A DNA stretch of 64,000 bases from Nitrospirota bacterium (GCA_963701855.1 CAVPBK010000006.1:352001-416000); one strand, 5' to 3'. Shown: positions 7,025 to 63,872, counted from the first letter of the stretch. The notes: generated by a model not told the origin, from the letters alone. Program-made: numbers and translations.

Positions 7025-7867
7025 TCAGCTCGCAAGCTGGATAGTTTCGGGAGTGGGTGGCTGGCCCACGAGACTGCTATGTGGACGGACCATGTTGTAG
7101 TGAGTCCTCCAACGTTCCGTCATGATCTGTGCTTCCTTGAGTGTATAGAACAGCTCGCCGTTCAAAAACTGCTCCCGCATCTTTCCATTAAATGACTCGA
7201 CATACCCGTTCTCCCAGGGAGACCCTGGCTCGATATAGAGCGGCGCAGCCTGAAGGGCGTTCAGCCATTGTCTGAGTTTGCTCGCGATGAACTCCGGCCC
7301 ATGATTCGATCGGATGTGCATCGGGATCCCGCGACTGAGAAACAGATCCGCCAGGATCAACAACACGTCTTGTGAGCGGATCCGGCGGGCTACCACCGAG
7401 GCCAGACACTCACGGTTGTACTCATCAAGAATATTGAGAATCCGAAAGGGCCGTCCGTCGTGCGTCCGATCTGCCACGAAGGCATACGACCAGACGTGAT
7501 GGCGGTACGCGGGCCGGAGTCGGAGGCACGACCAATCAGCGCGCCACAGTCGGGCTCGCTTCGGCTGCTTTTGCGGCACTTGGAGGCCTTCGTGCCGCCA
7601 GATCGTATACACGGAGTCTTTTCCCACGTCCCAGCCCTCGCGTCTTAAGAGATCCGTCACCGTACGGTAGCCGTACCGCCCATACTCCTTCGCGAGGGCG
7701 ATGATCCGCTCGCGCACCCGCGCTCGATCGTGATCAGGCTGCGGCACGTACCGATAGGAGGACCGGATCTGGCCGATCGCCCGACACGCTCGACGCTCGG
7801 ACACCTGGAGCACCGTGACGGCGTGCCCCACGGCTTCGCGCCGGCGGGCCGGGTTTAGAAGTTTCCC
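7025..7867 (-). pseudogene. IS3 transposase OrfB (rve) with mutated DDE residues
   Basis: YGYR, PGSPWENGYVESFNG and RPHSSL present, but WSYDF reads WSYAF and RSDNGPEF reads RSNHGPEF. Confidence 0.85.
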
Positions 7868-8133
7868 GCGGCGACCTCTTTCAAGATGGAGAGATCGAGC
7901 GCTTGGTCGGCGACAATCCGCTTGAGGCGCAGATTCTCCTGCTCCAGTCCCTTCAGCTGCTTCGCTTGATCCACGCGCAGCCCACCGTATTCTTTCTTCC
8001 ACCGGTAGTACGTTTGCTCGGTAATGCTGAGCTTCCGACACGCGTCAAGCACCGCTAGCCCTTTGCTGGTCTCCAGCTCGACCGTCCGCAGATGTTGAAT
8101 GATCTCTTCGGGCGTGTACCGTTTTTTGGGCAT
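7855..8133 (-). CDS. IS3 transposase OrfA (HTH)
   Basis: TYYRWKKEYGG and LEQENLRLKRIVADQALD motifs; G-GGA-AAC slippery site at 7861-7867 just before the stop. Confidence 0.9.
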   Translation of the reverse strand: MPKKRYTPEEIIQHLRTVELETSKGLAVLDACRKLSITEQTYYRWKKEYGGLRVDQAKQLKGLEQENLRLKRIVADQALDLSILKEVAAGNF

Positions 8134-8626: not shown

Positions 8627-8724
8627 CGTCCTGGCTGCCTGTGGAACTCGGCGTGTCTTCCCTCCGATTCCGGACACACTTGCTTTCCTCGCATTCTGCC
8701 CACAGTGACCTTGTATCTTGCGCC

Positions 8725-9865
<1,141 letters not shown>

Positions 9866-10874
9866 GCCCCCTATAAACAGGCCGGATCTGGAGTCAAGAT
9901 TTCGACCGGTGGTCGGCTCCATAATTTTGTACCATTGCTAGGGAGCGTTTCCCGCCGTGATGCGGGGCTCACAGCGCTGATGCTCCGCGTGGGCCCTAGC
10001 GAATTCCTCGGGTGTGCGAGCCTGGAGCGCCTGGTGAGGCCGACTCCCGTTCTCCTCACGCCGCCAGGCCTCGATCCGGTCGTGAGCCTCCCGCAGTGAC
10101 TCGAACCCGTGTGCATGCAGGCCCTCCCGTCGCAACGTCGCATGGCACGATTCCACATGCGCATGGTCCGTCGGCGTGCCTGGTCTAGAGCAGTCGATGG
10201 AGACCGTGTTGTGAGAGGCCCAGCGGTCCATTCGCTGACTCCTGAACTCACTCCCGTTGTCACAGAAGCGCCTCCTCGGCGTGCCTCGATGGATGTTGCG
10301 CCGAGTCAACACCGCCACGACGTGCGCGCCGCGAAGACGCTGGCCCACCTCAATGGCCACACCCTCGCGCGTATACACAGCGCTGCCGGTGCGGGCGCGA
10401 AATCGGCGCCCCTCGACCAGTGGATCCGCCACACCGTCTCGTAGCCACGCGTCCTGCGGTCTCGTTACCGTCGGCCGGTGCACTCGGGGCACCACCGATT
10501 TTCGCCGCCGGGGGCTCCGGCGACGCAGCCTCAGGCCTTCTTCTCGGGAGAGACGAGACCCGAGCTTCTTGCCCACAGCCCCCCGTCCCGATTGAGGCGC
10601 CCCCGAATGTTTCGATACCCGTACCGGACCCGCGTCTGGGTCAGCTCCCTGCGCCGCGGCCGGAGTGCGGGGCGGGGATCACGCTGACTCCGATAGTCGT
10701 AGGGGGCCCTCGCACCGCGGACGGTTCGGCAGGCGCGCCGCTCACGCACCGCATACGCGGGGCACAGAGACGTCCCCACACTCCGCGTCCGCGAGGGCCG
10801 TAGACTTGTTTTGTGAGGACGTCCTGCAGCCTGACTTTGTCCAACGACAAGTCCGCCACCACGCACTTCAGCAA

Positions 10875-11219
10875 GGAGAAGAGCCCGGGAGATTAACGCG
10901 ACTGATTAAGGATTCTTAAACTCAGAAGATCGAATATGCCATGATCTCGATCGGTGACACCGATCATTACAAAGCATTCCCGTGGAGTAATTTCAAAGTC
11001 GACAAGGAAGAGGGCAACGTCGCGCTCAACGTGACGAGGGAGCAGCTGCGGCCCGAGCTCGCGCAAACCGATCTCTCGCCGGACGTTACGAAAGTGGTGG
11101 AAGATCCGCCGCAGATGCTCAGAAAGTCGGAACCTCGAAATGCCGAAAAGCGTGATCGTTTAAGCAGTGGTCCGGTGAGCGAACACGACGTGGGCGACTC
11201 CCCATCTTCTGGCAAGTAA
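10875..11219 (+). pseudogene. PRC-barrel-like gene remnant
   Basis: GEEPGRLTRLIKDS*TQKIEYAMISIG...PWSNFKV resembles a PRC barrel; in-frame stop; 5' end replaced by the IS. Confidence 0.5.
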
Positions 11220-11430
11220 AACATGGACGAGGGTTGTCAGGGATGGCCGAAGCAGAGGACTCCGGCGTCATCATCTGACCCCAACTGCTCTCTGCAACTC
11301 TGAGAGCTAGGGGATTTCCCAGTACCCTAACCGGCTAGGCAGGAACAGGATGCTTGATCATGAGGGTTGGCATCTCGACTTGTTGCCGTTCTTGGCTCGC
11401 CCTGTAAAAAATTATAGAAGGAGGTGGAGA

Positions 11431-11688
11431 ATGGTTGGAGAAACCATGTTCGCTCAAATAATTCATGAGGCGCCGTCCGCTTCGAGAAAAAAGCCGTCGC
11501 TGCTCGCCGTCTGTTGTATGTGCGGACTCGTTCGAGACGAGACCAGACATTCCCTCGATCATGAGCGTTGGGTTACGCGGCGAACGTATCGAAAAATACA
11601 TGGTGCGATGCCGGACGATTGCGTTCTCACTCATACATACTGTCCAAACTGTTATACACAGGTTATGGATAGAATGAGTACCGGCTAG
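11431..11688 (+). CDS. small Cys/His-rich (zinc-binding-like) protein
   Basis: VCCMCG and THTYCPNC motifs; GGAGGTGGAG RBS. Confidence 0.6.
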   Translation: MVGETMFAQIIHEAPSASRKKPSLLAVCCMCGLVRDETRHSLDHERWVTRRTYRKIHGAMPDDCVLTHTYCPNCYTQVMDRMSTG

Positions 11689-11748
11689 GTCATGTAGTGT
11701 CTCCGCGTCCCATGCGGTACAGTTCTACCCGGTCTCTGGTTATCCATA

Positions 11749-12012
11749 ATGGCCGTAGGAGTCACAATGGCTGGTGAATTCATGCCCTCTCAGATAGCGC
11801 GGGTGGTGGCTGACGCGAAGGATCAAACCGAAATGGCCAATACTCTCAGAGAATTTGGGAAAAGCGTTGTGGCCTTGCGCGACGTGATGGATCAGGACAG
11901 GTCCTTCACTGATATGGAATTACTGTTCATTGAAAACCATTTCCAAGTCATACAGATGGCCTATCTTCGGTGGAAGCGGAAGCATAGGCTCGTACCTAGA
12001 GATCCGGCGTAG
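11749..12012 (+). CDS. hypothetical protein
   Basis: Clean ORF, helical composition; start uncertain. Confidence 0.5.
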   Translation: MAVGVTMAGEFMPSQIARVVADAKDQTEMANTLREFGKSVVALRDVMDQDRSFTDMELLFIENHFQVIQMAYLRWKRKHRLVPRDPA

Positions 12013-12071
12013 GGAAAATTCGCGGAATCACCTCAAGTATCTCTTTAATCTGTAGCCAGGTAGAGCCACTT

Positions 12072-19206: not shown

Positions 19207-22200
19207 ATGAACGAAACATCGATTCTCCCATCCCGCAAGAAGCAGCCGTCCGAGGCCGTACTGGGCAATGGTAAGCCCGGCAGGCAGAAAACGAGGCACA
19301 TTCTGTCGAAGGATTCCTCCGAGGCTCATTCGCGGCTGATTCTCGCAACGATTGTCGCGTTTCGCGATGGGGATTTCTCGGTGCGGTTACCTGCGGGTTG
19401 GACAGGGATGGATGCGCAGATTGCGGAGGCATTCAATCAGACGATCGCGCAAAAGGAGCACATTCTGAAGGAGGTCACGCGGTTGAGCGCGACAGTGGGC
19501 AAGGAGGGACGGCTGAGGGAACGCATGTCGCTGCCGGGAGCGGTCGGCGCATGGGCGACGGAGGTGGATTCCATCAATACACTCATTGACGATCTCGTGC
19601 GGCCCACGACAGAAATCGCGCGAACCATCGGCGCAGTGGCCAAGGGCGACCTCGATCGGTCGATGGAACTGGAGGTGGACGGGCGCTTGCTGAAGGGTGA
19701 GTTCCTGCGCTCAGCGAAGCTTGTGAATACCATGATCGATCAGCTTTCGGTCTTCACGTCTGAAGTCACCCGTGTGGCGCGCGAAGTCGGCACCGAGGGC
19801 AAGCTCGGCGGCCAGGCGCGGGTCAAGGGTGTGTCCGGAGTGTGGAAGGAACTCACCGACTCGGTAAACCAGATGGCAGGCAACCTGACCGCCCAGGTGC
19901 GCAACATCGCCGACGTGACCATCGCAGTGGCGAATGGCGATTTGTCCAAGAAGATTACCGTCGATGTGCGCGGTGAGATTTTGCAGCTCAAGGAGGCCAT
20001 CAACACGATGGTGGATCAGCTCCGCTCCTTCGCGTCGGAGGTGACGCGCGTGGCGCGCGAGGTCGGCACCGACGGTCGTCTCGGCGGGCAGGCGGTGGTG
20101 CCCGGGGTGGCCGGCACCTGGAAGGATCTCACAGACTCGGTCAATGCCATGGCAACCAATCTCACCGCGCAGGTGCGCAACATCGCGACGGTAACTACTG
20201 CAGTGGCACGCGGCGATCTTTCGCGGAAGATCACTGTCGATGTGAAAGGCGAGATTCTTGAGCTGAAAGAAACTATCAACACGATGGTCGAGCAGCTCCG
20301 TTCCTTTGCCTCCGAGGTCACGCGTGTGGCACGCGAGGTCGGCACCGAGGGCAAGCTCGGCGGCCAGGCCCAAGTGCCTGGCGTGGCCGGTACCTGGAAA
20401 GATCTCACCGATAACGTCAACTCCATGGCCAATAACCTCACCGGCCAGGTCCGCAACATCGCCGACGTGGCCACGGCCATCGCCAAGGGCGATCTCTCCT
20501 CGAAAATTACCGTCGAGGTGAAGGGCGAAATCCTTGAGTTAAAGAACACCATTAATACGATGGTGGACCAGCTCAACGCCTTTGCTTCCGAGGTCACGCG
20601 TGTGGCGCGCGAGGTCGGCACCGAGGGAAAACTCGGCGGCCAAGCCCAAGTGGGCGGCGTGGGCGGTACCTGGAAGGACCTCACCGACAATGTCAACTTC
20701 ATGGCCTCCAATCTCACCGGCCAGGTCCGCAACATCGCCGACGTGGCCACGGCCATCGCCAAGGGCGATCTCTCCTCGAAAATTACCGTCGAGGTGAAGG
20801 GCGAAATCCTCACCTTGAAAAACACGCTCAACACGATGGTGGACCAGCTCAACGCCTTCGCCGGCGAGGTCAGCCGCGTGGCGCGCGAGGTCGGCACCGA
20901 CGGCAAGCTCGGCGGCCAGGCGCAAGTGCCCGGCGTGGCCGGCACCTGGAAGGATCTCACCGATAACGTCAACTCCATGGCCAACAACCTCACCGGCCAG
21001 GTCCGCAACATCGCCGACGTAACCACCGCTGTGGCACGCGGTGACTTGAGCCGCAAGATCACCGTCGATGTACGTGGTGAAATTCTCGAGTTGAAGGAAA
21101 CCATCAACACAATGGTGGATCAGCTTCGTTCATTCGCCGGTGAGGTCAGCCGCGTGGCGCGCGAAGTCGGCACCGACGGCAAGCTCGGCGGCCAGGCGCA
21201 AGTGCCCGGCGTAGCCGGCACCTGGAAGGATCTCACCGATAACGTCAACTCCATGGCCAATAACCTCACCGGCCAGGTCCGCAACATCGCCGACGTGGCC
21301 ACAGCCATCGCCAAGGGCGATCTCTCTTCGAAGATCACCGTCGAGGTGAAAGGCGAAATCCTCACCTTGAAAAACACGCTCAACACGATGGTGGACCAGC
21401 TCAACGCCTTCGCCGGCGAGGTCAGCCGCGTGGCGCGCGAGGTCGGCACCGAAGGCAAGCTCGGCGGCCAGGCGCAAGTGCCCGGCGTGGCCGGCACCTG
21501 GAAGGATCTCACCGATAACGTCAACTCCATGGCCAACAACCTCACCGGCCAGGTCCGCAATATCGCCGACGTGACCACCGCTGTGGCACGCGGTGACTTG
21601 AGCCGCAAGATCACCGTCGAGGTGAAGGGCGAAATCCTCGAGTTGAAGAACACCATCAATACGATGGTTGATCAACTCAACGGCTTCGCTTCCGAGGTCA
21701 CGCGCGTGGCGCGCGAGGTCGGCACCGAGGGCAAGCTCGGCGGCCAGGCGCAAGTGCCCGGCGTGGCCGGCACTTGGAAGGATCTCACCGATAACGTCAA
21801 CTCCATGGCCAATAACCTGACCAGCCAGGTCCGCAACATCGCCGACGTGGCGACCGCCGTAGCCAATGGCGATCTTTCCCGCAAGATCACCGTCGATGTG
21901 CGCGGTGAGATTTTGCAACTCAAAGAAACCATCAACACGATGGTCGAACAGCTCAACTCCTTCGCCGGCGAGGTCAGCCGCGTGGCGCGCGAAGTCGGCA
22001 CCGAGGGCAAGCTCGGCGGCCAGGCCTTGGTCAAAGGCGTGGGCGGCACCTGGAAGGATCTCACCGATAACGTCAACTCCATGGCCAATAACCTCACCGG
22101 CCAGGTCCGCAACATCGCCGAGGTGACCATCGCCGTGGCCAACGGCGATCTTTCCCGCAAGATCACCGTCGATGTACGCGGCGAAATTTTGCAACTCAAG

Positions 22201-25200
22201 GAAACCATCAATACGATGGTCGAGCAGCTCCGTTCCTTCGCGTCAGAGGTCACCCGCGTGGCGCGCGAGGTCGGCACCGAGGGCCGGCTCGGCGTTCAGG
22301 CAGTAGTGCCCGGCGTCGCGGGGACCTGGAAAGATCTCACCGACTCGGTCAACACCATGGGCGCGAACCTCACCGCGCAGGTCCGCAACATCGCGGAAGT
22401 CACCACCGCCGTCGCGCGCGGCGATCTCAACCGCAAGATCACCGTCGATGTGAAAGGCGAAATCCTCGAGTTGAAGAACACGATCAATACCATGGTCGAT
22501 CAGCTCAATTCCTTCGCCGGCGAGGTGACGCGTGTGGCGCGCGAGGTCGGCACCGAGGGGAAACTCGGAGGCCAGGCGCAGGTGAGCGGCGTGGGCGGCA
22601 CCTGGAAGGACCTCACCGACAACGTCAACTTCATGGCTTCCAATCTCACCGAACAAGTCCGCGGCATCGTGAAAGTGGTCACCGCCGTGGCCAACGGCAA
22701 CCTGAGCCAGCGCTTGACCGTGCAGGCCAAAGGTGAGGTTGCCGCGCTCGCCGATACCATCAATAATATGACCGATACGCTTGCGACCTTTGCCGACCAG
22801 GTCACGAACGTGGCGCGCGAAGTCGGCGTCGACGGACGGCTCGGCGGCCAGGCCAACGTCCCCGGCGCAGCCGGCACGTGGAAGGATCTTACCGGCAATG
22901 TCAACCTGCTTGCCGCCAATCTCACCACGCAGGTGCGCGCCATTGCCGAGGTCGCCACGGCCGTCACCAAGGGTGATCTCACACGCTCCATTCAGGTGGA
23001 AACACGTGGCGAGGTGGCCGAACTGAAGGACAACATCAATACGATGATTTCCAACCTGCGCGAGACGACCGAAAGCAACCGCGAGCAGGACTGGCTCAAG
23101 ACCAACCTCGCAAAATTCAGCGGCATGCTCCAGGGCCAGCGCGAGCTGAATACGGTGGGTCGAATGCTCCTCACCGAGCTGACGCCGCTGGTCAATGCCC
23201 ATCAAGGCACCATCTACCATCTTACCGGCACAGGCGACGATCCCACACTGAACCTGCTCTCGAGCTATGCACACGGTGGAGACGAGCCACTCTTGGAACA
23301 GATATCCCTCGGCGAAGGCCTCGTCGGCCAGTGCGCAGTGGAAAAACGGCGCATCCTGCTCAATAATGTACCGCCTGATTTCATCTCAATCTCGTCCAGT
23401 CTCGGCAAGGCGCGGCAGGTGAGTATCATCGTGCTGCCCGTACTCTTCGAGGGACAGACCAAGGCAGTCATCGAGCTGGCCACGCTCCAGAGCTTCAGCG
23501 CCGGGTCACTCGCATTCCTTGAGCTGCTCACCCAAAGCATCGGCGCGGTCTTCAATACCATCGAAGCGACGATGCGAACCGAGGGTCTGCTCACGCAATC
23601 GCAACAGCTCACCGTCGAACTTCAGTCCCGCCAGTCAGAACTCCAACAGACCAACGAGGAGCTGGGCATGAAGGCCAAGCTCCTTGCCGAGCAAAACGCC
23701 GAGGTCGAGCGTAAGAACGCCGAGGTCGAGCAGGCTCGTCGCGCGCTCGAGGAAAAAGCCGCCGAGTTGGCGCTCACGTCGAAATACAAGTCCGAGTTTC
23801 TCGCGAACATGTCCCACGAGCTGCGCACGCCGCTCAATTCCATCCTTATACTCAGTCAACAGCTCGCTGGAAATACCGGAGGGAACCTCTCGGATAAGCA
23901 GGTTGAGTTCTCCCGCAACATCAACTCCTCCGGCTCCGACCTGTTGCACCTCATCAATGACATCCTGGATCTCTCAAAAATCGAATCCGGGACCGTCACC
24001 GTCGAGGTCGAAGAAATCTCTTTCGCCGGCCTGCGCGACACCATCGACCGCAACTTCCGGCACGTGGCGGAAGCCAAGAATCTGCCCTTACACGTGCACT
24101 TTGCCGAGGACCTGCCTCGATTCATGTACACCGACCCGAAGCGGCTCCAGCAAATCCTCAAGAATCTGCTCTCCAACGCCGTGAAGTTCACCGCTCACGG
24201 CCAAGTCGAGGTTCGCGTCGGTTTTTCCACGCAGGGTTGGAGCGCCGATCATCCGGTGCTCAACGCAGCCCCGCATGTCCTCTCTTTCGCCGTCGAAGAC
24301 ACCGGCATCGGAGTTGCTCCGGAAAAGCAGCGGCTCATTTTCGAGGCCTTCCAGCAGGCCGACGCCGGCACTTCCCGCAAGTACGGCGGTACCGGCCTCG
24401 GGCTCGCCATCAGTCGTGAGCTGGCCGTACTGCTCGGCGGCGAAATCAAGCTTTCGAGCGTCTTCGGGCAAGGGAGCACCTTCACGCTCTACCTGCCTCT
24501 CCACTACTCCGGCCCCGATACTGAGAGGAGCGCGCCGGCCAGCATCGCCACACTCGAGACGGCCAAGCTGCTCTCTGTCCACCTGCCAGTCGCACGCGAA
24601 GAGCACATCGAGGACGATCGCAACCAGATCGAAGAGAGCGACTCCGTTTTGCTTATAATCGAGGACGACCCGCATTATGCGCGCGTCCTCCTGGGTCTAG
24701 CCCGCGACAAGGGCTTCAAGGGCATCGTCGCCACGAAAGGCGCGCTGGGCCTATCCCTCGCCCGGCAGTTCCACCCGGTGGCCATCTCGCTCGATATTGC
24801 GCTCCCGGATATGCTCGGGTGGACGGTGCTCAATCAGCTCAAGCTCGATCCGTCTACGCGTCACATCCCGGTCCAAATCATCACCGTGGAAGAAGAACGC
24901 CATCATGGCCTCGCGCACGGGGCGTTTTCCTACCTCGTCAAAGCGCCCACCACCGAAGGCCTGAAAGCGGCGTTCGACCGGATCAAAGACTTCACTGTCC
25001 CGCGCACGAAGCGGCTTCTGATCGTCGAAGACAATGACATTGAACGCCAATCCATCGTGGAGCTGCTCGGCTATACAGACATTGAAGTGGTGGCCGTCGC
25101 CACCGGAGGCGAGGCGCTGGAGGCGATGCTTGGCATGTCGTTCGACTGCGTCGTGCTCGATCTGCGCCTACCCGACATGACCGGATTCGAACTGTTGGAG

Positions 25201-25812
25201 AAAGTGCACGCAGAACCGACCCTGACGGACGTACCTGTGGTCGTCTTCACCGGCAAGGAGTTGACCGACGAAGAACAGTTGCGGCTCAAAGCGATGGCTA
25301 AGAGCATTGTCCTCAAAGACGTCCAATCACCCGAGCGGCTGCTGGACGAGACCGCTCTCTTCCTTCACCGAATCGTCACCGACTTGCCGGAAGAGAAGCA
25401 GAAGATGCTCGATCGGCTTCACGGCTCCAATGAAATCCTGCGCGGCAGGAAGGTCCTCGTGGTCGATGACGACGTACGTAACATCTTCGCCTTAACCTCG
25501 CTACTCGAAAACCAGGAGATGGACGTGGTCAGCGCAACCAATGGCCGCAACGCCATCGACCTCATTCAGAACACGCCAGACCTGAGCATCGTGCTTATGG
25601 ATATCATGATGCCGGAAATGGATGGCTATGAGACAATGCGCGAAATTCGAAAAGTCCAGGAATTCCGCACCGTCCCGATCCTTGCCCTCACAGCAAAAGC
25701 CATGAAAGGCGATCGCGAGAAGTGCCTCAACGCCGGCGCGAGCGATTACATCGCCAAGCCGGTGAATACGGACCAACTGCTGTCACTGATGCGGGTATGG
25801 CTTTTCAGGTAA
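19207..25812 (+). CDS. poly-HAMP (group III/Nik1-like) hybrid histidine kinase: HAMP repeats-GAF-HisKA-HATPase-3xREC
   Basis: About 13 tandem 92-aa EV(T/S)RVAREVG..G.LGGQA units; [21 protein letters not shown] and GGTGLGL boxes; three receivers; no TM. Confidence 0.95.
19480..23060 (+). repeat. coding tandem repeat, 276-bp unit (HAMP array)
   Basis: GTGGCGCGCGAGGTCGGCACCGA-type motif recurs every 276 nt. Confidence 0.9.
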
Positions 25813-38139: not shown

Positions 38140-38212
38140 ATGCTCCTTCTCCGGATGAAGTTACTTTCATCCCTGTCGCGACCCTGCCCACCACCCTAAT
38201 ACTCCTGGTCGC

Positions 38213-38440
38213 TTACCCCACGAGACTCTTGCCCTGTTCGATCACATTGCAAATTGATGTCTTGGCGTTGCCCAACATATGACTCGTATCCTCCTCTAGA
38301 TCCTTAGCCAGACTTTCGAGTTGGCGTCGTGTCCGTGCGCCTGATTGGGGCGCCAGTAACAAGCCGGCGCCGACTCCCACAATGAGGCCGGTGAAAAAGG
38401 CAGTTGTACCTATACTTGTGCACCGTGTTCCCTCAGTCAT
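38213..38440 (-). CDS. YtxH-domain protein
   Basis: FFTGLIVGVGAGLLLAPQSGARTR. Confidence 0.85.
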   Translation of the reverse strand: MTEGTRCTSIGTTAFFTGLIVGVGAGLLLAPQSGARTRRQLESLAKDLEEDTSHMLGNAKTSICNVIEQGKSLVG

Positions 38441-38479
38441 GGCCGTATCCTCCCTTGTTCTTCTCTGAGGTTGTTCAAT

Positions 38480-38728
38480 TCAGGCATCGCGGCCCTGTTC
38501 GATTTCGCTCGCTTTCAATTCCCTGGGGTTGCGGCAACGGCTGCATCGACCCACAAGTATTCCATTCATGCCGTCTCCGCTGACGCGAAATACTAGGAAA
38601 TATCGAGGGCTCCCACAATGAGCACACATAGGACCTTCCAAATCCCGTAGGACAGGCAATCCTCCGATGAGCTTGTCTTTCTGCATATCGTGACATGCCA
38701 TTGACTGAGAGCGATCGATCTCTTTCAT
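38480..38728 (-). CDS. small zinc-ribbon protein
   Basis: CAHCG...CSRC; AGGGAGG RBS. Confidence 0.6.
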   Translation of the reverse strand: MKEIDRSQSMACHDMQKDKLIGGLPVLRDLEGPMCAHCGSPRYFLVFRVSGDGMNGILVGRCSRCRNPRELKASEIEQGRDA

Positions 38729-38809
38729 GGACCCTCCCCTTCTGTACACTAATGTCAAATGGGTTCGTCAGTACTACACACGCTCACTGACGTGATGTTC
38801 TGACAATTT

Positions 38810-38824
38810 GCAAGACTCAGACCG
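38810..38824 (-). promoter_or_regulatory. sigma54 -24/-12 promoter (candidate)
   Basis: CGGTCTGAGTCTTGC (GG-N10-GC) upstream of zinc ribbon-ytxH-otsA. Confidence 0.55.
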
Positions 38825-39087
38825 CTTTACCACAACGAAAGTTCCGCATTAGATAACTGTCAATATTTACAATGCATACAGACATGCGGCTTCATCATCG
38901 CGAGCCAGATAATCGCTTGGAAACTTGGTCAGACAAGCGGACTCGTTGGATACGGCTGCGTGACGGGCGAAACACAAGTCACAGTCACATAAGGCGATTG
39001 TGTGTGGAGGGAACATCTTGTCCTCCGAGGACAGGCTGTCTCGATCAAACAATCATCATGCATCAGGGAAAAAATCGACGCGTCCGA

Positions 39088-41253
39088 CTATTTCGTGACG
39101 ACAATCCCGACTTTGCCTTCTCGCCGCAGTATGTTGATGCCGACATCCTTCGTATGATGTTCAAGCAGGAGGTCAACTTCGGCCTCTCCAATCCTGAGAT
39201 TCTTAATTTCAATGTATTCCAGGAACGGCGGCAACACAGGTTGTGAGAACGACAGGCGGGAACGCGGAGCCTCAATTCGCAAACCGAGGCACGATTGGAG
39301 CAGCAGGAACACGGCAACAGATGACCAAGTCTGAGGACTACAGGCTACCGGGTACAGTGTTGGACCTTCACCGGGGCTGCGCTGGAACCCGCACAACAAT
39401 TCAGGTAACCGATGCCGATCGAGAAACAGGCTGGCGTCGAACAGTCCGCAAAGAATCTTCAAGGCGCCTTGTTTGAACCGATAGGCGGCCATACCGGCCG
39501 CGATAAGGGCATTATCGTGCGGCCAAACGGATCCATTGTGGTACGCCATTGGATTAAAGCGGGGCTCAGTGGCAGCGACGGTTCGGATCCCCCATCCGTT
39601 AAAAAACTCATCGCCGACTAGGGTCATGGCCGTTCTTATGCCGCGCTTTGGCTCGGCAATCCCAGTCCAGAGACAGTGGCCGGCATTCGATGTCCTGACA
39701 CGACAAGGCTGCTTGAACCCATCCAACGCTAACGCATAGGACGAGAGATCGTTGCACCAGAAGCTTCGCTCGAACTGAGTGCGTAACGTGTCCGCCTCCT
39801 TGAAGAGACACTTGGACTGTTCCGTATGACCCAGCATCAAAGCCAATCGAGCCGCGCGCCGCTTGGCGGCAAACACATATCCTTGCACTTCGCAGAGCGC
39901 GATGGGCCCTTCCGCCGAGCTGCCATCTGCATGAAACACGGCATCCTGCGAATCTTTCCATCCTTGATGGATGAGTCCGCTTTTCGACCGGCGGCTGTAC
40001 TCCACAAAGCCATCGCCATCGAAGTCCCCTGCGTGATCGATCCACTGCAGCGCAAGATCGATATTCGGCCAGATCTGCTTAATGAAGGCGATATCGCCTG
40101 TCCGTTCGTAATAGGCTCCGGCCAACATGATGAACAACGGGGTTGCGTCGATGCTGCCATAGTAGCGGCCGTACGGAATCTCCTTGAGTGCCGCCATCTC
40201 TCCCTTGCGAGTTTCATGCAAAATTTTACCAATCTCTGCATCCTGCTCCGGGAGCATCTCCCTCGCTTGGGTCGCAGCCAGATAGGACAATACACCACGG
40301 GCGATGCTTGGGTTGATCCACAGAAACTCGAATGCGGTGATGAGTCCGTCTCGTCCGAACGGGGTATTGAACCATGGGACACCGGCGTAGGGGTATGGGC
40401 CGTCGGGAGTGTCTGAGACCATCATGTGGAGGTCAGCCAGCGAGCGATTCAGCCAGACATTGAATTGCTCATTCGATGTCACGATCTGACAATCGCCAGC
40501 CCTGGCGGAATGGAACGCCCGGTCTACCTCGACGAGCGCATGCTCATACGAGACATAAGACCGATCACGCCTGCCGACTTCACAAGAGATCGTCAGATCC
40601 CACTGAACGACTTTTCCAGCCGGCAAGAGCGTGTCAAAACGGATCTCACTCGGATGGACTGTGGTCGGAGCCGGTACACAGAAGAGCGTGACCCACCGAT
40701 CCACACAATCCAACCCCTCATATCCGAGAGAAATTCCATCCTTGAACGTGATCGCCTCCAACCGTCGGCCCCGCCGGCTTCGTATCTTCCCACGGACTTC
40801 GAACAGGTCCGCAAAATCCGCATCCACCGAGAAGGAGAGGCGGACTGGAATGGAAACGAGGCTGTAGTTGTGCACTCGAAGGCGCTCGAAGCAGAGGCCT
40901 TGCCACAAGAATCGAGCGCGGGACAGGTGCAGTGCCCCACGCGGAACCTCCACCTGTCCCTCATGAGTGATATCGGGATTCGTGAGATCGACGTTGAACA
41001 CGACGTTGTTTTCCTTGAGCGTCGAACTGAGCAGTAACGGCCGCTGCCCGTTGAGGCTCAGCTCGAAACGGGACAAAAACCTGGTTCCTTCGTGGTAGAG
41101 GCCGTGCGAGCCAGTTCTATGAGAATGGATATCGCCGTATCGATCGAACAAGCCGAACGTGTCGCCCTGATTCAGCACCTCGATGTGGTCATCGGTCAGA
41201 GAGGAGGAAGCCACAATGTGACATTGATCATTCCGACAATCGACGCGTTCCAT
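39088..41253 (-). CDS. amylo-alpha-1,6-glucosidase / glycogen-debranching-like glycoside hydrolase
   Basis: AGVPWFNTPFGRD, GKILHE, YYGSIDATPLF, QGWKDS, YHNGSVWPHDN and LPEL motifs. Confidence 0.9.
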   Translation of the reverse strand: MERVDCRNDQCHIVASSSLTDDHIEVLNQGDTFGLFDRYGDIHSHRTGSHGLYHEGTRFLSRFELSLNGQRPLLLSSTLKENNVVFNVDLTNPDITHEGQVEVPRGALHLSRARFLWQGLCFERLRVHNYSLVSIPVRLSFSVDADFADLFEVRGKIRSRRGRRLEAITFKDGISLGYEGLDCVDRWVTLFCVPAPTTVHPSEIRFDTLLPAGKVVQWDLTISCEVGRRDRSYVSYEHALVEVDRAFHSARAGDCQIVTSNEQFNVWLNRSLADLHMMVSDTPDGPYPYAGVPWFNTPFGRDGLITAFEFLWINPSIARGVLSYLAATQAREMLPEQDAEIGKILHETRKGEMAALKEIPYGRYYGSIDATPLFIMLAGAYYERTGDIAFIKQIWPNIDLALQWIDHAGDFDGDGFVEYSRRSKSGLIHQGWKDSQDAVFHADGSSAEGPIALCEVQGYVFAAKRRAARLALMLGHTEQSKCLFKEADTLRTQFERSFWCNDLSSYALALDGFKQPCRVRTSNAGHCLWTGIAEPKRGIRTAMTLVGDEFFNGWGIRTVAATEPRFNPMAYHNGSVWPHDNALIAAGMAAYRFKQGALKILCGLFDASLFLDRHRLPELLCGFQRSPGEGPTLYPVACSPQTWSSVAVFLLLQSCLGLRIEAPRSRLSFSQPVLPPFLEYIEIKNLRIGEAEVDLLLEHHTKDVGINILRREGKVGIVVTK

Positions 41254-41262
41254 GAGTCCCTC

Positions 41263-42564
41263 TCATCGGGTTCTGATGGACCAGCTCAACCAACCGCCAA
41301 GGGAGGCAGTGAGAAGAAAGGTCACACCGATGCCTGCGACGCCGATCGATTCACCAAACCGTTCTGTGACCCAACCGAACAGACTGATCCCACTGATGGC
41401 GGCAGCCATGGCGCCAGTGCTATAGAGACTCATCACCCGTCCGACGAGGTTTCCGGGGGTCAGTTCCTGGACGATACCCCACGCGATCGGGGTGAACGCT
41501 CCCATACCCCCACCGATGACGACCATGAGCAGACCGACCAACAAGAGATTATTCGTCCAGACGAGCACCCCGATCGCCAATGCGCTCGCTACGCTTGCCC
41601 CAGCGATAATCCTGGTGCGATCCGACAAGTTCCACTCAGTAAACCGCAATAGCGCTATCGACATGAGCAGCAGCCCCACTCCCAGGGCGGACCAGAGGTA
41701 GCCCACCTCGACCGGTCCCAGACCTAACATCTTTTTCGCAAAGACAGGAAACAATGTCGTCAGGGCGCTGGCGCCGAATCCATAGCACCCTGCGGCTACG
41801 ACCAACAACACGATGACGCGTTGTTTGATGACAACGAAGGCCAGTCCCTCGCTGAGATCTTGCAGTGCTGAACCACCGGTCCGTTTTGGTTCTGCAGAAG
41901 GCTGTCGCGTTCCCAATCGTACGAGCCCGAGGCATATCGCCGCCACGAAATACGTGACCGCGTTCAGACAGAGCACTTCCTGGGAACCGAAAAACGCGAT
42001 ACCTATCCCGCTCATGGCCGGACCGAAAATGATGCCCAGGCTGGTCGTGCTCTGAATCAGCGCATTCGCGGCTGTGAACTGCGCCCGTGGGACAATCAGC
42101 GGCACCGACGCCGTCAGCGCAGGACTGAACATCGCCATGGCCACTGCGTCGAGCAGAACAAGGACGTACAAGAAATTGACCGTGAAGGTTTCGGCCTGGA
42201 TGGCGCAGGGAATGATTCCGATCAGCACAGCCCGCAAAACGTTTGATCCGATAAGGAAGAGTTTTTTCGGCAACCGGTCTACATAGACACCAATGAAGGG
42301 ACCGAGCACAATGGGAGGGATCGTATGAAGGAGGCCGATAATGGTGGTTTTCACTGGAGAGCCGGTAATCGAATACACGAACCAGAGGAGGGCAAGGTTC
42401 GAGATACCATCGCCAACTTGGGATATGAGTTGACTGAGCCAGATCAATCCAAAATCTCGCGCAAAAAGCAGGCGCCAGGGGCGCACCGCGCGAACCTGTG
42501 TGTGTGTCATTTCGTTGGGTTGCGCAGGCACTCGGTTGATCATCAGAGTCTGCCAAGATCTCAT
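41263..42564 (-). CDS. MFS transporter (DHA3/H+ antiporter-like)
   Basis: About 12 TM segments; GVYVDRLPKK motif A. Confidence 0.9.
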   Translation of the reverse strand: MRSWQTLMINRVPAQPNEMTHTQVRAVRPWRLLFARDFGLIWLSQLISQVGDGISNLALLWFVYSITGSPVKTTIIGLLHTIPPIVLGPFIGVYVDRLPKKLFLIGSNVLRAVLIGIIPCAIQAETFTVNFLYVLVLLDAVAMAMFSPALTASVPLIVPRAQFTAANALIQSTTSLGIIFGPAMSGIGIAFFGSQEVLCLNAVTYFVAAICLGLVRLGTRQPSAEPKRTGGSALQDLSEGLAFVVIKQRVIVLLVVAAGCYGFGASALTTLFPVFAKKMLGLGPVEVGYLWSALGVGLLLMSIALLRFTEWNLSDRTRIIAGASVASALAIGVLVWTNNLLLVGLLMVVIGGGMGAFTPIAWGIVQELTPGNLVGRVMSLYSTGAMAAAISGISLFGWVTERFGESIGVAGIGVTFLLTASLGGWLSWSIRTR

Positions 42565-43376
42565 CCCTCACTCTCGATCCTGACCTTATCCGTCCTCACA
42601 GCCTTTACTCCTGGGACCTGCCTGGCCGCTTCTGCCGCTTCCAACACAATCACTTGGAATCGGACGGCGCCGCTGAGTGACACGACTCCCTGTTCCGTCT
42701 TCACGTCGAAGTTGGCCGCGGTCACTGTCGCACTTTGGGCAAATCGTTCTTTGACATAGCGGGTAATGACGTCGTCTTGTTTGTGTGTGATGACGTCCTG
42801 CAGGTCTTTGATCACCTCCAGTTTGTTGGACACAGATTTCACGGTCGGTACCGTGCTCGCGATTTTTGCTGCGGCAGCCTTCTCCGTTTCGGTGGACACC
42901 CTCCCAGAAAGCGTGACCTCCTCAGACCCGGCGTCCACCTCGATCTCGTACGGAAACAGGCGGGGATCTTCCAGCAACGCGAGTTTGACCGTCAAAATCA
43001 GCGAGGATACTGCCTTCTTGCCCGTACCCTCTTTTTCTTTCTCTGCCCCCTCTTCTCTCACGTCTTTTTTTGCCTTTGACTCTTCCCCCTTGGATGTCTG
43101 TGTCTTCGGCTGAATCGGCTTCGATTCCTGAGCGGACAACTGGACTGGAGGTGGTTCTTTCTGTGGCTTGGTAGGAGGCATAGAGTCCCCTCCTTTGCCC
43201 TGATCGGCGAAAGATGGAGTTGATGTGCTTGCCCGCTGATCACTCTGGGCGAGCATCGGATTCTTGAGCTGATCCGCAAGCAGCGCACACAGGCAGAGCA
43301 CCAGGAGGGCTGCGCCCTGTCCGAAATCGCTGCGCTGCAACTGGGTCCGTTTCACATCTCTCACGTTCATGCCCAT
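42561..43376 (-). CDS. BON-domain protein (two BON domains, OsmY-like)
   Basis: EVTLSGRV...VKSVSNKL and GVVSLSGAV...VPGVKAV. Confidence 0.85.
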   Translation of the reverse strand: MGMNVRDVKRTQLQRSDFGQGAALLVLCLCALLADQLKNPMLAQSDQRASTSTPSFADQGKGGDSMPPTKPQKEPPPVQLSAQESKPIQPKTQTSKGEESKAKKDVREEGAEKEKEGTGKKAVSSLILTVKLALLEDPRLFPYEIEVDAGSEEVTLSGRVSTETEKAAAAKIASTVPTVKSVSNKLEVIKDLQDVITHKQDDVITRYVKERFAQSATVTAANFDVKTEQGVVSLSGAVRFQVIVLEAAEAARQVPGVKAVRTDKVRIESEG

Positions 43377-43414
43377 CGAGATGAGTCAATGCGAGAAAAC
43401 CCGATGGAACCATT

Positions 43415-44698
43415 TCACACCGGCATGAATTCGGGCGCTGTCCTGTCGGGGCGTCGTCGACTAAAGGCAGCCGCAACGGTCGCGGTCCCCAACAACAGCA
43501 TCCCGATGCCCACAAGGCTCGTTGCTGGTCCAATGGCATCCGCCACCCAACCGAACCCTGCCATCCCGGCCATGGCGGAGGCCATGGCACCGGTGCTGAA
43601 GGTGGTAAAGACACGGCCTAAGAGGGGTTCGGGCGTCAATTCCTGCAACATGGCCCACACGATTGGCGTGAAGACCGCGGTGCTGCCGCCGAATACGATG
43701 ATGAGGGCAGCGGCCATCACCGGCGCCTGTAGCATGCCAAGCGTGCACACCGCCACGGCGCCGACAGCCAGAGCAGCGGATATCAACCGCAAGCGATTTT
43801 GGAAATCTCCCTGATTGATCCATGACAGCCAGGCTGACGCACCCAGCATCCCTATCCCGAGCGATGACCATAGCCATCCGAGTTCGACGGCACTCGCATC
43901 GAGAATTTGCGTCGCAAACACGGGCAGTAAGAACACGAAGGCGCTTGCCCCTAAACTATAGAGTGTGGCGGTGAGCATAAGAAGGAGCACGGTCCGATGC
44001 TGGATGAAGACAAACCGAAATCCGACCAAAAGATCTTGGAGGATCGAGGCTCTGTCAGCCATCTGCGCGCGCGCGTTCAGAGTTTCACGCAGGCGGATCG
44101 GCATGAGGCACATCGCGGACACCAAGAACGTCGCCGCATCAAGGTAGAGAACATTGTGGGCTCCGATCATGGCAATACCCACTCCGCTGACGGCCGGTCC
44201 GATCAGGAGACCGATATTCGTCGTGCTTTGAATCAACGCATTGGCGCCAGTCAGTTGAGCGCGAGGCACGAGAAGCGGAACAGCCGACGCCAATGCCGGA
44301 CCAAATACCGTAGAGACAATAGACGTCGCGAAGACGAGCACGTAGAGCCATTCGAGCGTCAGGATCTCCACGGCGTAGAGCAATGGGATCAGCATGACCA
44401 ATCCCGTACGGATGAGGTCTACCCAGATCATCACCGGTTTTTTCTTCACTCGGTCGAGATACACGCCGATGAGAGGACCGAAGACCAACGGCGGAATGGT
44501 CTGGAGCAATCCGATCACCGTCATTTTGAAAGCTGACCCTGTCAATTCATACACGAACCACAGCAGGGCCACTTTGTTCATGCTGTCGCCGATTTGAGAA
44601 ATGGCCTGGCCGGAAAACAGAAAGGCGAAACTCCTCGTCCTCAGTAATTCCCATCCTGATCCTGCCCGATGGACCCTCGCGCTATCATTCTCAACCAC
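43415..44698 (-). CDS. MFS transporter (paralog of 41263-42564)
   Basis: About 12 TM segments; GVYLDRVKKK; shares ANALIQSTT; GTG start after GAGGAGG. Confidence 0.9.
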   Translation of the reverse strand: MVENDSARVHRAGSGWELLRTRSFAFLFSGQAISQIGDSMNKVALLWFVYELTGSAFKMTVIGLLQTIPPLVFGPLIGVYLDRVKKKPVMIWVDLIRTGLVMLIPLLYAVEILTLEWLYVLVFATSIVSTVFGPALASAVPLLVPRAQLTGANALIQSTTNIGLLIGPAVSGVGIAMIGAHNVLYLDAATFLVSAMCLMPIRLRETLNARAQMADRASILQDLLVGFRFVFIQHRTVLLLMLTATLYSLGASAFVFLLPVFATQILDASAVELGWLWSSLGIGMLGASAWLSWINQGDFQNRLRLISAALAVGAVAVCTLGMLQAPVMAAALIIVFGGSTAVFTPIVWAMLQELTPEPLLGRVFTTFSTGAMASAMAGMAGFGWVADAIGPATSLVGIGMLLLGTATVAAAFSRRRPDRTAPEFMPV

Positions 44699-60876: not shown

Positions 60877-61161
60877 ATGAGCGCAGAAACTACCACTGAA
60901 ACATCTGGGAATCAACACAAGGACCTACGGACGCGCTGTGCGTTCTGCTTGGCAACTATCGACGTGAACCTCGATAAACGCGATCGTCCGTACTGGGTGT
61001 GCGTGTCGTGTCAAACGCGAACTTTCGCCACACGCACAACCCTCGATTCCTTCAAACAAGCGGGCTGGATTTGGAGTGATGAGCCTCCGCTTAAGGCTCT
61101 GCGATCGTGGCTGGATCGGATCATGGTTGAAGCGGGCTTAACGAAAAAGAAGAAGCGATGA
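60877..61161 (+). CDS. small zinc-ribbon protein
   Basis: CAFC...CVSC; ATGA overlap with the primase. Confidence 0.65.
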   Translation: MSAETTTETSGNQHKDLRTRCAFCLATIDVNLDKRDRPYWVCVSCQTRTFATRTTLDSFKQAGWIWSDEPPLKALRSWLDRIMVEAGLTKKKKR

Positions 61162-63872
61162 ACGATAAACTAGCTTCAAGACTGCAAGCGGCACTCACCT
61201 ATGCCAGCAGGGGTTGGCTAGTCTTTCCTTTGCACAGTATACGTGAGGGCGGCTGTTCCTGTGGTCGGCCTGCCTGTGAATCTGCTGGCAAGCACCCACG
61301 CACCCTCCACGGACTCAAGGACGCGACAGTAGGTGAATCTCAGATTCGTGCCTGGTGGAGTACCTGGCCCGATGCCAACGTCGGCATTGTCACGGGTTCG
61401 CGGAGCGGGCTGGTTGTCGTGGATATTGACCCGCGCAATGGCGGAGATGACAGTCTCGCGGACCTGGAGCGAACACAGGGACCCTTCCCGAAAACGGTTG
61501 AGTCGCTCACCGGGGGCGGCGGGCAGCACTTCTACTTTCAGCACCCTGGCGGATCAATCAAATCAAAGCCACTTGCTGAGGGAATCGATATCAAAGCCGA
61601 TGGCGGGTATGTGGTGGCACCTCCCAGCATTCACCGGAGCGGGGAACCGTATCGGTGGGAGGGTGGAGGGCATCCCGAAGACGTGCCTCTTGCGGCACTC
61701 CCAGGTTGGCTATGCGCCAAGATGACTGGAGGGCTCGCGCCTCCTTCACAACCACGAGCGGCTACCTCTTCTGAAAAGATTCAGGCTGGATCCCGCAACA
61801 AGACGTTGGCGAGCTTGGCGGGGGCCATGCGTCGGCAGCATGCCGATGAAGTGACCATCCAGCAAGCACTCCGAGCCCATAACCAACAGTGTTGTGATCC
61901 TCCCCTGCCTGACGCAGAGGTGAACCAAATTGCGGGGAGCATTGCCAAATACCCAGCGGGCGTCAGGACAAATCCGAATGAGGGACAGAACGGATCGGGA
62001 GAGAGTGACAAGCCAGGGAAAATCAGCTGCGCTGATCAGTTGATGCAAGTCTGTGAACAATCCGGTGCGACACTGTTCCACGATCAGTTTCAAGAGGCCT
62101 ATGCCTGGGTGGTGCTGCAAGGCTGCCGTGAGGTCGTGAAGATCCACAGCAAGAAGTTTCGAGAGTGGATCGCCTATCAGCTCTGGCTGAAACAGGAGAA
62201 GGCTCCTGCGAGTGAAGGGCTGCAGAGTGCGATCAATGTCCTGTCGGCTCAGGCCAAATTCACCGGACCAGAGCATCGGCTCTGGAACCGCGTGGCGTGG
62301 CATGAGGGAGCCCTCTGGTATGACCTCGGAAATGCCGCCGTCAGAATGACCTCGGAGGGGTGGGAGATCATCCTGGAACCCCCGCTCTTGTTTCACCGGT
62401 ATGCACATCAACGGCCGCAAGTCAGCCCAATCCCGGGAGGCGATCTGCGGCGCCTCCTGACGTTCGTCAATATCCCTGGGAGCGACACCGGGCAGACTCC
62501 CGCACAGTTGTTGTTTCTCGTGTCGGTCGTGCTGATGGTGGTACCGACAATTCCACATCCGGTCCTCTGTGTGCATGCCGAACAAGGCAGTGGGAAAACC
62601 ACCCTCTTTAAAGTGATTCGCGAGCTGATCGATCCGAGCCTTACTCCCACGCTTGGCCCTCAGGACAGCTTGCGCGAATTTGTGCAGGTCGCATCGCATC
62701 ATTGGGCGATGTTCCTCGACAATCTCACAACGCTGCCGGATTGGTTATCCGACGCGATCTGTCGCTGTGTGACGGGCGAAGGGTTCTCCAAGCGAGAACT
62801 CTTCTCCGATGATGAAGACATCCTTTACAGCTTTCTGCGCTGTGTCGGCCTTAACGGGATCAATTTGGTGCCGTCAAAGCCTGACCTCCTCGATCGAGCT
62901 GTGATTCTCCCTCTCGAACGAATCCCCGACCGACAGCGACGCACGGAACGCGAATTCTGGGAACAGTTCCAGGCTGAGAAACCCCACCTGATCGGGGCAC
63001 TGTGTACAGTCATGAGCCAAGCGATGGCATTGTTCGATCGCGTGCAGGTATCCCACTACCCACGATTGGCGGATTTTGCCCACTGGGGAGCCGCGGTGGC
63101 CCTGGCACTTGGGACCTCGGAACAAGCGTTCTTAGCAGCGTTAACAGTTAACACGATGGCTCAGACCAACGAAGCGTTAGAAGCCAGCCCAGTGGCCCAA
63201 GCACTATTGAAAATGATGGAGGGGCGCTCGTTGTGGGTCGGGACGCCCCAGGAGTTGCTCAAGCAGCTGAACCAAATGGCGGAAGGGGCAGGGGTCGATC
63301 AGAAGAATCGTCTCTGGCCCAAAGATCCCCGCTGGCTATGGCGGCGGATCAAAGAAGTGCGGCCCAACCTGCAGGCGGCAGGTCTTCAGGCCAATCATAG
63401 GCAGATAACGGGGAAGACCACGATCGAGATCACCAGAATAACCCAGGAAAATGATGCTGGTGATCCCGATGAGGGAATTGATCTGTTCGATCGCGCTGAT
63501 CAGACGGAGAACATCCGAGACGGTGAAAGTGATGTGCCTCTGAGTGATCCTCTGGGTAACCCTGCGGAGGACCTTCAGAATTCCGACAACGGGGACATCG
63601 CCAACATTTTCCCCGCTCATTCTGGTGTGGATGCCAGTGGCTGGCCCATCGAGCTGCCGGGAGTGGGTGTAGGAGAACAAGCCGACTTCGACCAGTGCCA
63701 TGTATGCCAGCAAGGGACCTGGCAACGATATGGCGGACTCCCATTCTGTAAGCGTCATGCGCTGCAGGCACTGGCCAGCCAGGGTGGTCCAATAACGTCG
63801 TCCGCGGGTTGTGACGGGATTATTGACGGTGAAGACAGGGGAAACCACACGAAAGGAGAAAACGATTCATGA
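61158..63872 (+). CDS. bifunctional DNA primase/polymerase (Prim-Pol) + PriCT-1 + P-loop helicase
   Basis: GKHP, ANVGIVTG, VVDID, GGGQHFYF, GYVVAPPSIH, GSRNKTLASLAG; Walker A AEQGSGKT, FLDN. Confidence 0.9.
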   Translation: MNDKLASRLQAALTYASRGWLVFPLHSIREGGCSCGRPACESAGKHPRTLHGLKDATVGESQIRAWWSTWPDANVGIVTGSRSGLVVVDIDPRNGGDDSLADLERTQGPFPKTVESLTGGGGQHFYFQHPGGSIKSKPLAEGIDIKADGGYVVAPPSIHRSGEPYRWEGGGHPEDVPLAALPGWLCAKMTGGLAPPSQPRAATSSEKIQAGSRNKTLASLAGAMRRQHADEVTIQQALRAHNQQCCDPPLPDAEVNQIAGSIAKYPAGVRTNPNEGQNGSGESDKPGKISCADQLMQVCEQSGATLFHDQFQEAYAWVVLQGCREVVKIHSKKFREWIAYQLWLKQEKAPASEGLQSAINVLSAQAKFTGPEHRLWNRVAWHEGALWYDLGNAAVRMTSEGWEIILEPPLLFHRYAHQRPQVSPIPGGDLRRLLTFVNIPGSDTGQTPAQLLFLVSVVLMVVPTIPHPVLCVHAEQGSGKTTLFKVIRELIDPSLTPTLGPQDSLREFVQVASHHWAMFLDNLTTLPDWLSDAICRCVTGEGFSKRELFSDDEDILYSFLRCVGLNGINLVPSKPDLLDRAVILPLERIPDRQRRTEREFWEQFQAEKPHLIGALCTVMSQAMALFDRVQVSHYPRLADFAHWGAAVALALGTSEQAFLAALTVNTMAQTNEALEASPVAQALLKMMEGRSLWVGTPQELLKQLNQMAEGAGVDQKNRLWPKDPRWLWRRIKEVRPNLQAAGLQANHRQITGKTTIEITRITQENDAGDPDEGIDLFDRADQTENIRDGESDVPLSDPLGNPAEDLQNSDNGDIANIFPAHSGVDASGWPIELPGVGVGEQADFDQCHVCQQGTWQRYGGLPFCKRHALQALASQGGPITSSAGCDGIIDGEDRGNHTKGENDS

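Follow-up and report, generated by a model that had tools for sequence, protein, structure and literature searches.

The window, by which we mean the whole 64,000-nucleotide stretch analysed here, corresponds to G000:C6:352001-416000 in a genome (G000) of 4.30 Mb, 15 contigs and about 55.6% G+C. Its segment 9001-11000 reaches 64.5-65.5% G+C, against 53-54% alongside, and carries on the minus strand, at 9910..10872, the remnant of an IS3-family element, here called ISx, which is truncated on its 5′ side inside OrfA, has 67.1% G+C and is hypermutated in the A:T>C:G class. An earlier note on this DNA had assigned positions 9866-10873 to the IS3 remnant; 9866-9909 belong instead to the end of an IS110-family element and the junction. 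This IS110-family element (8704..9903, plus strand, transposase ORF at 8871-9848) ends 6 bp from the outer end of ISx and is not hypermutated: the four IS110 copies of G000 are at least 98.9% identical, with 1 A:T>C:G change among 10 private changes over all four. The ISx terminus may be a target of the adjoining IS110-family ("RNA-guided") transposase element. On the other side of ISx, the flank at 10873..12058 has an ordinary spectrum, and homology to the sister genome G083 begins exactly at 10873. The same IS cluster includes an apparently intact second IS3-family OrfB of 338 aa (7025-8041, minus strand; NCBIfam IS3 model, 198.7 bits). Elsewhere, the window encodes a hybrid histidine kinase of 2201 aa containing roughly 12 HAMP repeats (19207-25812) and a 904-aa Prim-Pol and PriCT_1 protein, possibly part of an integrated element (61158-63872).

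The right terminal inverted repeat of ISx occupies 9910..9946 (minus strand), as delimited by comparison with both inverted repeats of an intact relative (L008) and of a second copy on contig C5; its outer end reads TGGTCGGC... on the plus strand starting at 9910, and it is the one inverted repeat that the window copy keeps. A residual OrfB frame of 212 aa, with many conserved residues replaced, is open at 9938..10576 (minus strand), as the earlier note had claimed. Upstream, the frame is limited by the loss of 1 bp in a C/G run near 10580-10585, as compared with the C5 copy. The frame matches the Pfam families rve_3 (1.9e-16) and rve (3.9e-09), so that a DDE integrase core is present, and it retains the acidic residues that we take to be the DDE triad. 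With the NCBIfam IS3 model it scores 119.1 bits, under the 160-bit cut-off, compared with 241.8 bits for the OrfB of L008. The frame probably remains open largely because A:T>C:G changes seldom create stop codons.

At 10800..10812 (minus strand), the former A7 frameshift site and the OrfA stop have been destroyed by three A:T>C:G changes: the relatives have AAAAAAATTCTAA, and the window has AAAACAAGTCTAC (reverse complement of 10800-10812). The earlier note had recognised that both were mutated in this way, although the ancestral form that it gave differs from the A7 run followed by TTCTAA in the relatives. The -1 frameshift arrangement of OrfA and OrfB is not functional in the window. Since OrfA is truncated at 10872 and both the A-run and the stop are mutated, the window copy is a remnant and not a working member of the IS3 family.

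Relatives, a twin copy and independent assemblies

Of 3076 candidates in a protein search, 1842 qualified as relatives at E <= 0.001, and the best of them is 79% identical. At the DNA level, 276 of 314 candidate stretches were confirmed in a scan of genome contigs and 530 of 602 in a scan of metagenome contigs, 80 being kept from each, and 17 of 85 genomes of the genus had a match at E <= 1e-30. The alignment used for the substitution spectra holds 29 sequences, six duplicate loci having been dropped and 13 matches shorter than 600 bp left out. The closest relatives of ISx were located in Nitrospira and Nitrospiraceae MAGs. Among them, L008, in genome G086, is an intact element of 60.7% G+C in which a 104-aa OrfA is followed, across an A7 slip site, by an overlapping OrfB. 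In the metagenome scan, no less-mutated intermediate of the window copy was found, and the best match was of the intact L008 type.

G000 contains a full-length twin of the window copy at G000:C5:84738-85975, which is 1238 bp long, has 67.0% G+C and forms a G+C spike (0.67) amid flanks of 0.50-0.57. Both of its inverted repeats (TGGTCGGC...) are present, and its flanks, AGAC and AGGC, match at 3 of 4 bases; target duplications of 4 bp are seen at the relatives L012 and L013. The twin segment G000:C5:85012-85975 aligns with the window copy over 963 bp at 97.6% identity, the two differing by 22 substitutions and 1 indel.

Words of the stretch occur in 20 of the 22 public runs listed, which come from 14 studies. 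Contigs from 4 runs in 4 independent soil studies match at about 98-99%, hypermutated states included; examples are contigs of 869 bp with 14 differences and of 782 bp with 15. These contigs continue into the sequence of the twin at 10872 and into the flank of the twin at 9910, and two of them bridge the window's own junction. Being assembled contigs, they attest the presence of the sequence and not its variability. The artefact that the earlier note had considered therefore finds no place in these data, as four independent soil studies carry the same sequence. RNA runs contain just 0.00-0.04 of the sampled words of the stretch.

Substitution spectrum of ISx

Against 11 close relatives, 56 of 69 derived changes in the window copy and 68 of 84 in the twin are A:T>C:G (hereafter, hits). 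The dense and nearly exclusive A:T>C:G spectrum that had been proposed from inferred ancestral codons is thereby borne out with real relatives: positions 9910-10872 are a dead IS3-family copy whose divergence from its close relatives is almost purely A:T>C:G. When polarity is set by four relatives, the counts are 81/114 for the twin (1216 sites), 63/88 for the window copy (938 sites) and 3/16 for L008. The window copy and the twin have 82 changes in common at positions where L008 and L007 agree, 65 of them A:T>C:G; read on the sense strand, these 65 are 26 A>C and 39 T>G. Both sense-strand types are again frequent in the twin (A>C 36, T>G 45), where the hits affect 81 of 471 ancestral A/T sites (~17%) and A:T>G:C transitions are rare (3/84). 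Compared with host third codon positions, the ISx spectrum gives a Fisher odds ratio of ~37 (p = 6e-26). The spectrum belongs to the 8-oxo-dGTP (MutT/Pol IV) class, in agreement with the assignment made in the earlier note.

Most of the hits predate the separation of the two copies, which have 65 shared changes (56 A:T>C:G) against 14 and 4 private ones; of the latter, 8 of 18 are A:T>C:G. Elevated counts recur in other aligned relatives, namely L007 with its near-duplicate L129 (16/33), L126 (6/6) and L006 (5/7), the last being a near-identical ISx copy in G086 compared with the intact master. L008 has no private change in this alignment, and 22 other aligned sequences have A:T>C:G shares between 4 and 31%. 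Long-dead copies have ordinary counts of 14/112 (L151), 4/65 (L130), 13/130 (L009), 25/181 (L120) and 20/188 (L109).

The hits have an even distribution over the element, with the two strand types mixed at random (35 runs against 36.2 expected, z = -0.28). Per available A/T site, codon positions 1, 2 and 3 were hit at 20/119, 39/193 and 7/61 (p = 0.28), and 63 of the coding hits are nonsynonymous and 3 synonymous. Changes outside the A:T>C:G class lie mostly at third positions (2, 1 and 9 at codon positions 1, 2 and 3); this minority probably dates from the time when the element still worked, and the neutral phase would therefore have been almost purely A:T>C:G. The individual residue replacements listed in the earlier note mostly hold, although some of the ancestral motifs it gave are incorrect (for DQLFD, the relatives show DQLVD). 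The replacement of Q by P in this motif occurs in the window copy alone.

With each hit written as T>G, 44 of the 86 hits have G at position -2 (p = 4e-6) and 38 have C at -1 (p = 0.02), and there is no 3′ effect. Sorted by the -1 base, the rates are 18/137 sites for G and 38/145 for C, and GTC is the least-hit triplet (3/44).

Host genes, flank and other repeats

The surrounding chromosome is normal, as the earlier note had supposed from the neighbouring genes. In host genes at 38206-44670 of the window, compared over six genomes, 175 changes are private to G000, 19 of them A:T>C:G and 86 C:G>T:A; at third codon positions, A:T>C:G accounts for 17 of 163 changes and for 17 of 410 ancestral A/T sites. 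The flank at 10873-12058 differs from G083 at 136 positions without an excess: in the A<->C/G<->T class, the window has G/C at 14 and A/T at 18. Over 522,426 aligned bases, G000 and G083 show 28,553 differences, with the same class symmetric (2598 against 2688), and no 400-bp segment in this alignment approaches the level of the IS; the largest excess, 21 against 6, falls in a 72%-identical paralogue.

Unselected DNA of other kinds is also ordinary and dominated by C:G>T:A. Ten short remnants of ISx in 8 other genomes give 23/208 A:T>C:G, a count from which three further fragments were left out. Another IS3-family group, with nine copies in G000, has ordinary spectra, both among private changes (3/24 in sum) and in its dead copies (5/61 and 0/19). 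The A<->C/G<->T class has a median share of 0.22 in the 340 repeat pairs that show 10 or more differences, and a 34.5-kb inverted repeat of 94.7% identity (G000:C3:17086-51588) has 342 of 1708 differences in this class, which is likewise ordinary. One suggestion of the earlier note, a neutral spectrum biased toward A:T>C:G in all unselected DNA, is refuted by the short remnants (23/208), the dead copies (5/61 and 0/19), the host third positions (17/163) and the symmetric alignment with G083; a host-wide neutral bias was rejected on the same grounds.

Spikes in G+C do not single out hypermutated DNA, as the 33 regions above 0.645 G+C are mostly IS elements of naturally high G+C. An IS30-like copy among them is normal, with 1/8 A:T>C:G in a sample of 8 private changes only. 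The genome also contains a long tandem array of ~69% G+C at G000:C6:1186898-1200066, whose 354-bp repeat units are alike to more than 99.9%.

Other scarred sequences

The signature marks ISx, two further IS3-family lineages and one functional multi-copy gene, and not the surrounding chromosome. The second hypermutated IS3-family element, ISy, lies at G000:C5:19210-20186 and C9:516786-517766, with 53/87 and 35/72 A:T>C:G, respectively. Its copies have 38 changes in common, 29 of them A:T>C:G, and 43 and 30 private ones; after the split, A:T>C:G makes up 22/43 in copy a1 and 6/30 in copy a2 (p = 0.008). The preference for G at -2 recurs in ISy (17 of 26 scorable hits, p = 0.012). A third IS3-family element, at G000:C6:456430-457685, has 45/86 A:T>C:G. 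Its relative L342 (G070:C4) has 26/56, and an intact-looking relative in G056 is clean (1/51).

The scarred sequence that is not an IS is gene copy b2 (G000:C9:228776-229527), which is functional and in which 16 of 34 private changes are A:T>C:G. Ten of these 16 hits fall at third codon positions, or 10 of the 90 sites available there. The b2 paralogue at G000:C11:6164-6916 has 2/19 A:T>C:G and the copy in G079 has 12/34. The family to which b2 belongs is a small gene family with a haem motif (CxxCH). The region around b2 shows no synteny in five relatives, and the scarred sequences as a whole belong to mosaic accessory regions that are not syntenic with the nearest genomes. All of them are multi-copy in G000, and each of the three hypermutated IS lineages has at least 2 copies sharing hits. 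Additionally, about 8-10 of 75 OrfB relatives from the database carry at least 8 replacements explicable only by A:T>C:G.

Repair and polymerase genes

For mutT, whose status the earlier note had raised, a putative gene is present: a mutT-like ORF is open at G000:C10:52431-52808 and scores 97.9 bits with TIGR00586, exactly at the cut-off. Directly upstream of this Nudix ORF, in another frame, lies a short mutY-like ORF (G000:C10:51781-52808 spans both), which covers model positions 2-216 only and scores 239 bits against a cut-off of 286.5. G000 also has fpg and two Y-family polymerase genes, the second of which (IMS domain) is at G000:C12:35444-35878 on an IS-rich contig.

Within the genus, 78 of 85 genomes have a mutT-like gene. 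In G091 and G092 (92% and 99% complete), no mutT-like match was found at E <= 1e-10, and the spectra of their host genes are ordinary, with 7% and 10% A:T>C:G. A search for a donor by host-gene spectra in 11 genomes revealed no strong mutator genome. The A:T>C:G share is 5-11% in ten of them and mildly raised, to 19% (34/175), in G086 alone; pooled, the ten others give 221/2651 (8.3%; p = 8e-6 for the comparison). G086 is the genome that holds the intact element.

Possible origins of the scars

The reading that we prefer, and hold weakly, is that most hits were taken before insertion, in a mutational setting unlike that of the present chromosome. Incorporation of 8-oxo-dGTP opposite template A would lead to A:T>C:G if MutT sanitation failed or if a low-fidelity polymerase such as Pol IV did the copying, and the source might have been a relative with a mutator phenotype or a replicon outside the chromosome that was copied inaccurately. 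In such a source, dead IS copies would be hit at all sites and a functional gene at synonymous sites only. The scarred copies could then have entered or spread in the chromosome, moved in trans by the transposase of intact elements. One shared exposure is suggested by the similar dose across unrelated scarred sequences (~17% of A/T sites in ISx, with ISy, the third element and b2), and the third-position pattern of b2 would require many generations under selection. This synonymous-site pattern, the similar dose and the clean nine-copy IS3-family group favour exposure before insertion, and the clean host and flank, the G at -2 in both ISx and ISy, and the variation of the mutational regime between lineages (raised in G086) add support.

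Several observations strain the same reading. Copies with 63 nonsynonymous hits and a lost frameshift site cannot move themselves, so that three dead lineages must have been carried in trans. None of the genomes tested appears as a donor, with ten of 11 at 5-11%. Changes private to one copy after the split are still enriched (8/18 in ISx, 22/43 in ISy copy a1), which means that the copies must have left the source separately. The near-identical copy in G086 differs from the intact master by A:T>C:G at 5 of 7 changes. The local context is unlike that of E. coli mutT or P. aeruginosa Pol IV. Finally, the ratio of hit rates would imply an equilibrium G+C content far above that of any known genome, which makes a long-lived mutator host hard to picture.

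Alternatively, the changes could be made in place by error-prone synthesis linked to the elements, with a low-fidelity polymerase accepting oxidised dGTP during mobilisation, a possibility that we hold tentatively and regard as nearly as probable as exposure before insertion. Copies repeatedly mobilised in trans would then collect A:T>C:G within their own boundaries only, and the candidate steps are the copy-out replication of IS3-type elements, repair of transposase nicks and gene conversion between copies. The hits do end at the element boundary (10872/10873), and the twin stands out as a G+C spike in flanks of 0.50-0.57. All three IS lineages are multi-copy with shared hits, so copying followed the hits, and the youngest differences of near-identical copies are A:T>C:G (L126 6/6, L006 5/7). 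The ordinary spectra of immobile truncated remnants (23/208) and of long-dead copies also fit synthesis in place, as do the two Y-family polymerase genes and the fact that the pattern recurs elsewhere, in further genomes and among database proteins (about 8-10 of 75). Nevertheless, the nine-copy IS3-family group is unenriched among its young copies (3/24) and ordinary in its dead ones, and b2, a functional gene that is not an IS, is hit at synonymous sites. A very high error rate per event, or a very large number of events, would probably be required. The literature searched offered no precedent in its titles and the beginnings of its abstracts, and we know of none for element-linked error-prone A:T>C:G synthesis. 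Synthesis in place and exposure before insertion both require that dead copies be moved in trans.

A broader proposition, that the genus has a process, recurrent in several genomes, which hypermutates particular mobile-element lineages by pure A:T>C:G change, coupled to mobilisation or aimed at them, and which kills copies, seems to us possible yet doubtful.

It is improbable that the whole genome passed through a past MutT-defective episode, whose scars were erased from shared DNA by homologous recombination and kept in accessory DNA. Such an episode would fit the position of all scarred sequences in non-syntenic mosaic accessory regions and their similar dose. However, host third positions (17/163) and the 522 kb aligned to G083, which are symmetric, preserve no such record, the dead copies of the other IS group and the flank at 10873-12058 are clean, and the erasure of nearly all neutral scars by recombination is hardly plausible.

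A RIP-like defence that senses and mutates repeated DNA is very improbable. Every scarred sequence is indeed multi-copy in G000, and the earlier suggestion of a process acting on mobile or repeated DNA stands to the extent that three IS3-family lineages and one multi-copy gene are hit. The rule of a repeat-triggered response fails, as four IS110 copies, the nine-copy IS3-family group and the 34.5-kb inverted repeat are untouched. Moreover, the hits are mostly shared and not independent (65 shared changes against 14 and 4 private in ISx, 38 against 43 and 30 in ISy), one of the sequences hit is a functional gene under selection, and a putative mutT-like gene is present.

Least credible by far is an ordinary cause, whether an assembly or base-calling artefact (T>G is a known class of systematic error in short-read sequencing), a merely G+C-rich divergent IS or G+C-biased gene conversion, given that contigs of 4 runs in 4 studies match with the hypermutated states and both junction types, that the hits are common to two genomic loci, that polarity is set by outgroups, with 63 nonsynonymous changes among 66 coding hits, and that biased gene conversion is excluded because A:T>G:C transitions are rare (3/84).

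Comparison with known mutational systems

The A:T>C:G class has been reported for mutT E. coli (bioRxiv 10.1101/2022.10.21.513255). The ISx changes resemble such a footprint in being nearly all A:T>C:G, in falling on both strands and in raising the G+C content. In contrast to the mutT case, the ISx-type pattern is found in a few mobile-element lineages and one gene, not genome-wide, and a putative mutT-like gene is present. The context also differs: for E. coli mutT, 5′-AA in the template is reported (bioRxiv 10.1101/2022.10.21.513255), whereas in G000 the mutated T is preferentially preceded by C at -1 and by G at -2. In P. aeruginosa, Pol IV (DinB) is described as causing regional A>C mutagenesis via oxidised guanine nucleotides, and the likeness extends to a regionally uneven distribution, many substitutions to Ala or Gly and equal codon positions (PMC12318082). 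The Pol IV context reported there is a 5′ G and/or a 3′ C beside the mutated base (PMC12318082), whereas here GTC is the least-hit triplet (3/44); in addition, the boundaries here follow the element and the density is far higher (~17% of A/T sites).

Fungal RIP resembles the present pattern in being a dense point mutation of one class that kills transposon copies. RIP produces C:G>T:A transitions in all sufficiently long duplicates, each copy independently; here, a transversion is involved, the majority of repeats remain unaffected, and copies have most of their hits in common. The likeness to diversity-generating retroelements lies in mutation aimed at A positions of a defined stretch. These systems replace adenines by any base, on a single strand and between a template repeat and a variable one, whereas the sense strand of ISx has changes at A (36) and at T (45), nearly all to C or G.

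Bacterial mutation is usually AT-ward and rich in transitions. A dense A:T>C:G scar in a few transposon lineages is rare evidence of differing mutational histories within one cell line. Scars made in place would represent a new means of inactivating insertion sequences, by the bacteria or by the replication of the elements themselves. Scars made elsewhere would turn dead IS copies into a record of mutator lineages or of replicons copied with low fidelity among uncultured soil nitrifiers, and of defunct elements mobilised in trans. A process at the level of the genus, if real, would parallel RIP or APOBEC editing, but through transversions; no such process is known from prokaryotes. In the literature searched, as judged by titles and the beginnings of abstracts, no description of element-restricted A:T>C:G hypermutation in bacteria was found.

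Whether the scars arose in place or elsewhere, T>G after G-N is a countable signature that can be searched for in other genomes. An upstream G also favours the T>G hotspots that follow G runs in bacteria, as reported by Cherry (bioRxiv 10.1101/2022.10.28.514265). That effect needs at least 3 G directly before the T, a situation found here in only ~3 of 86 hits, the base at -1 being mostly C (38/86).
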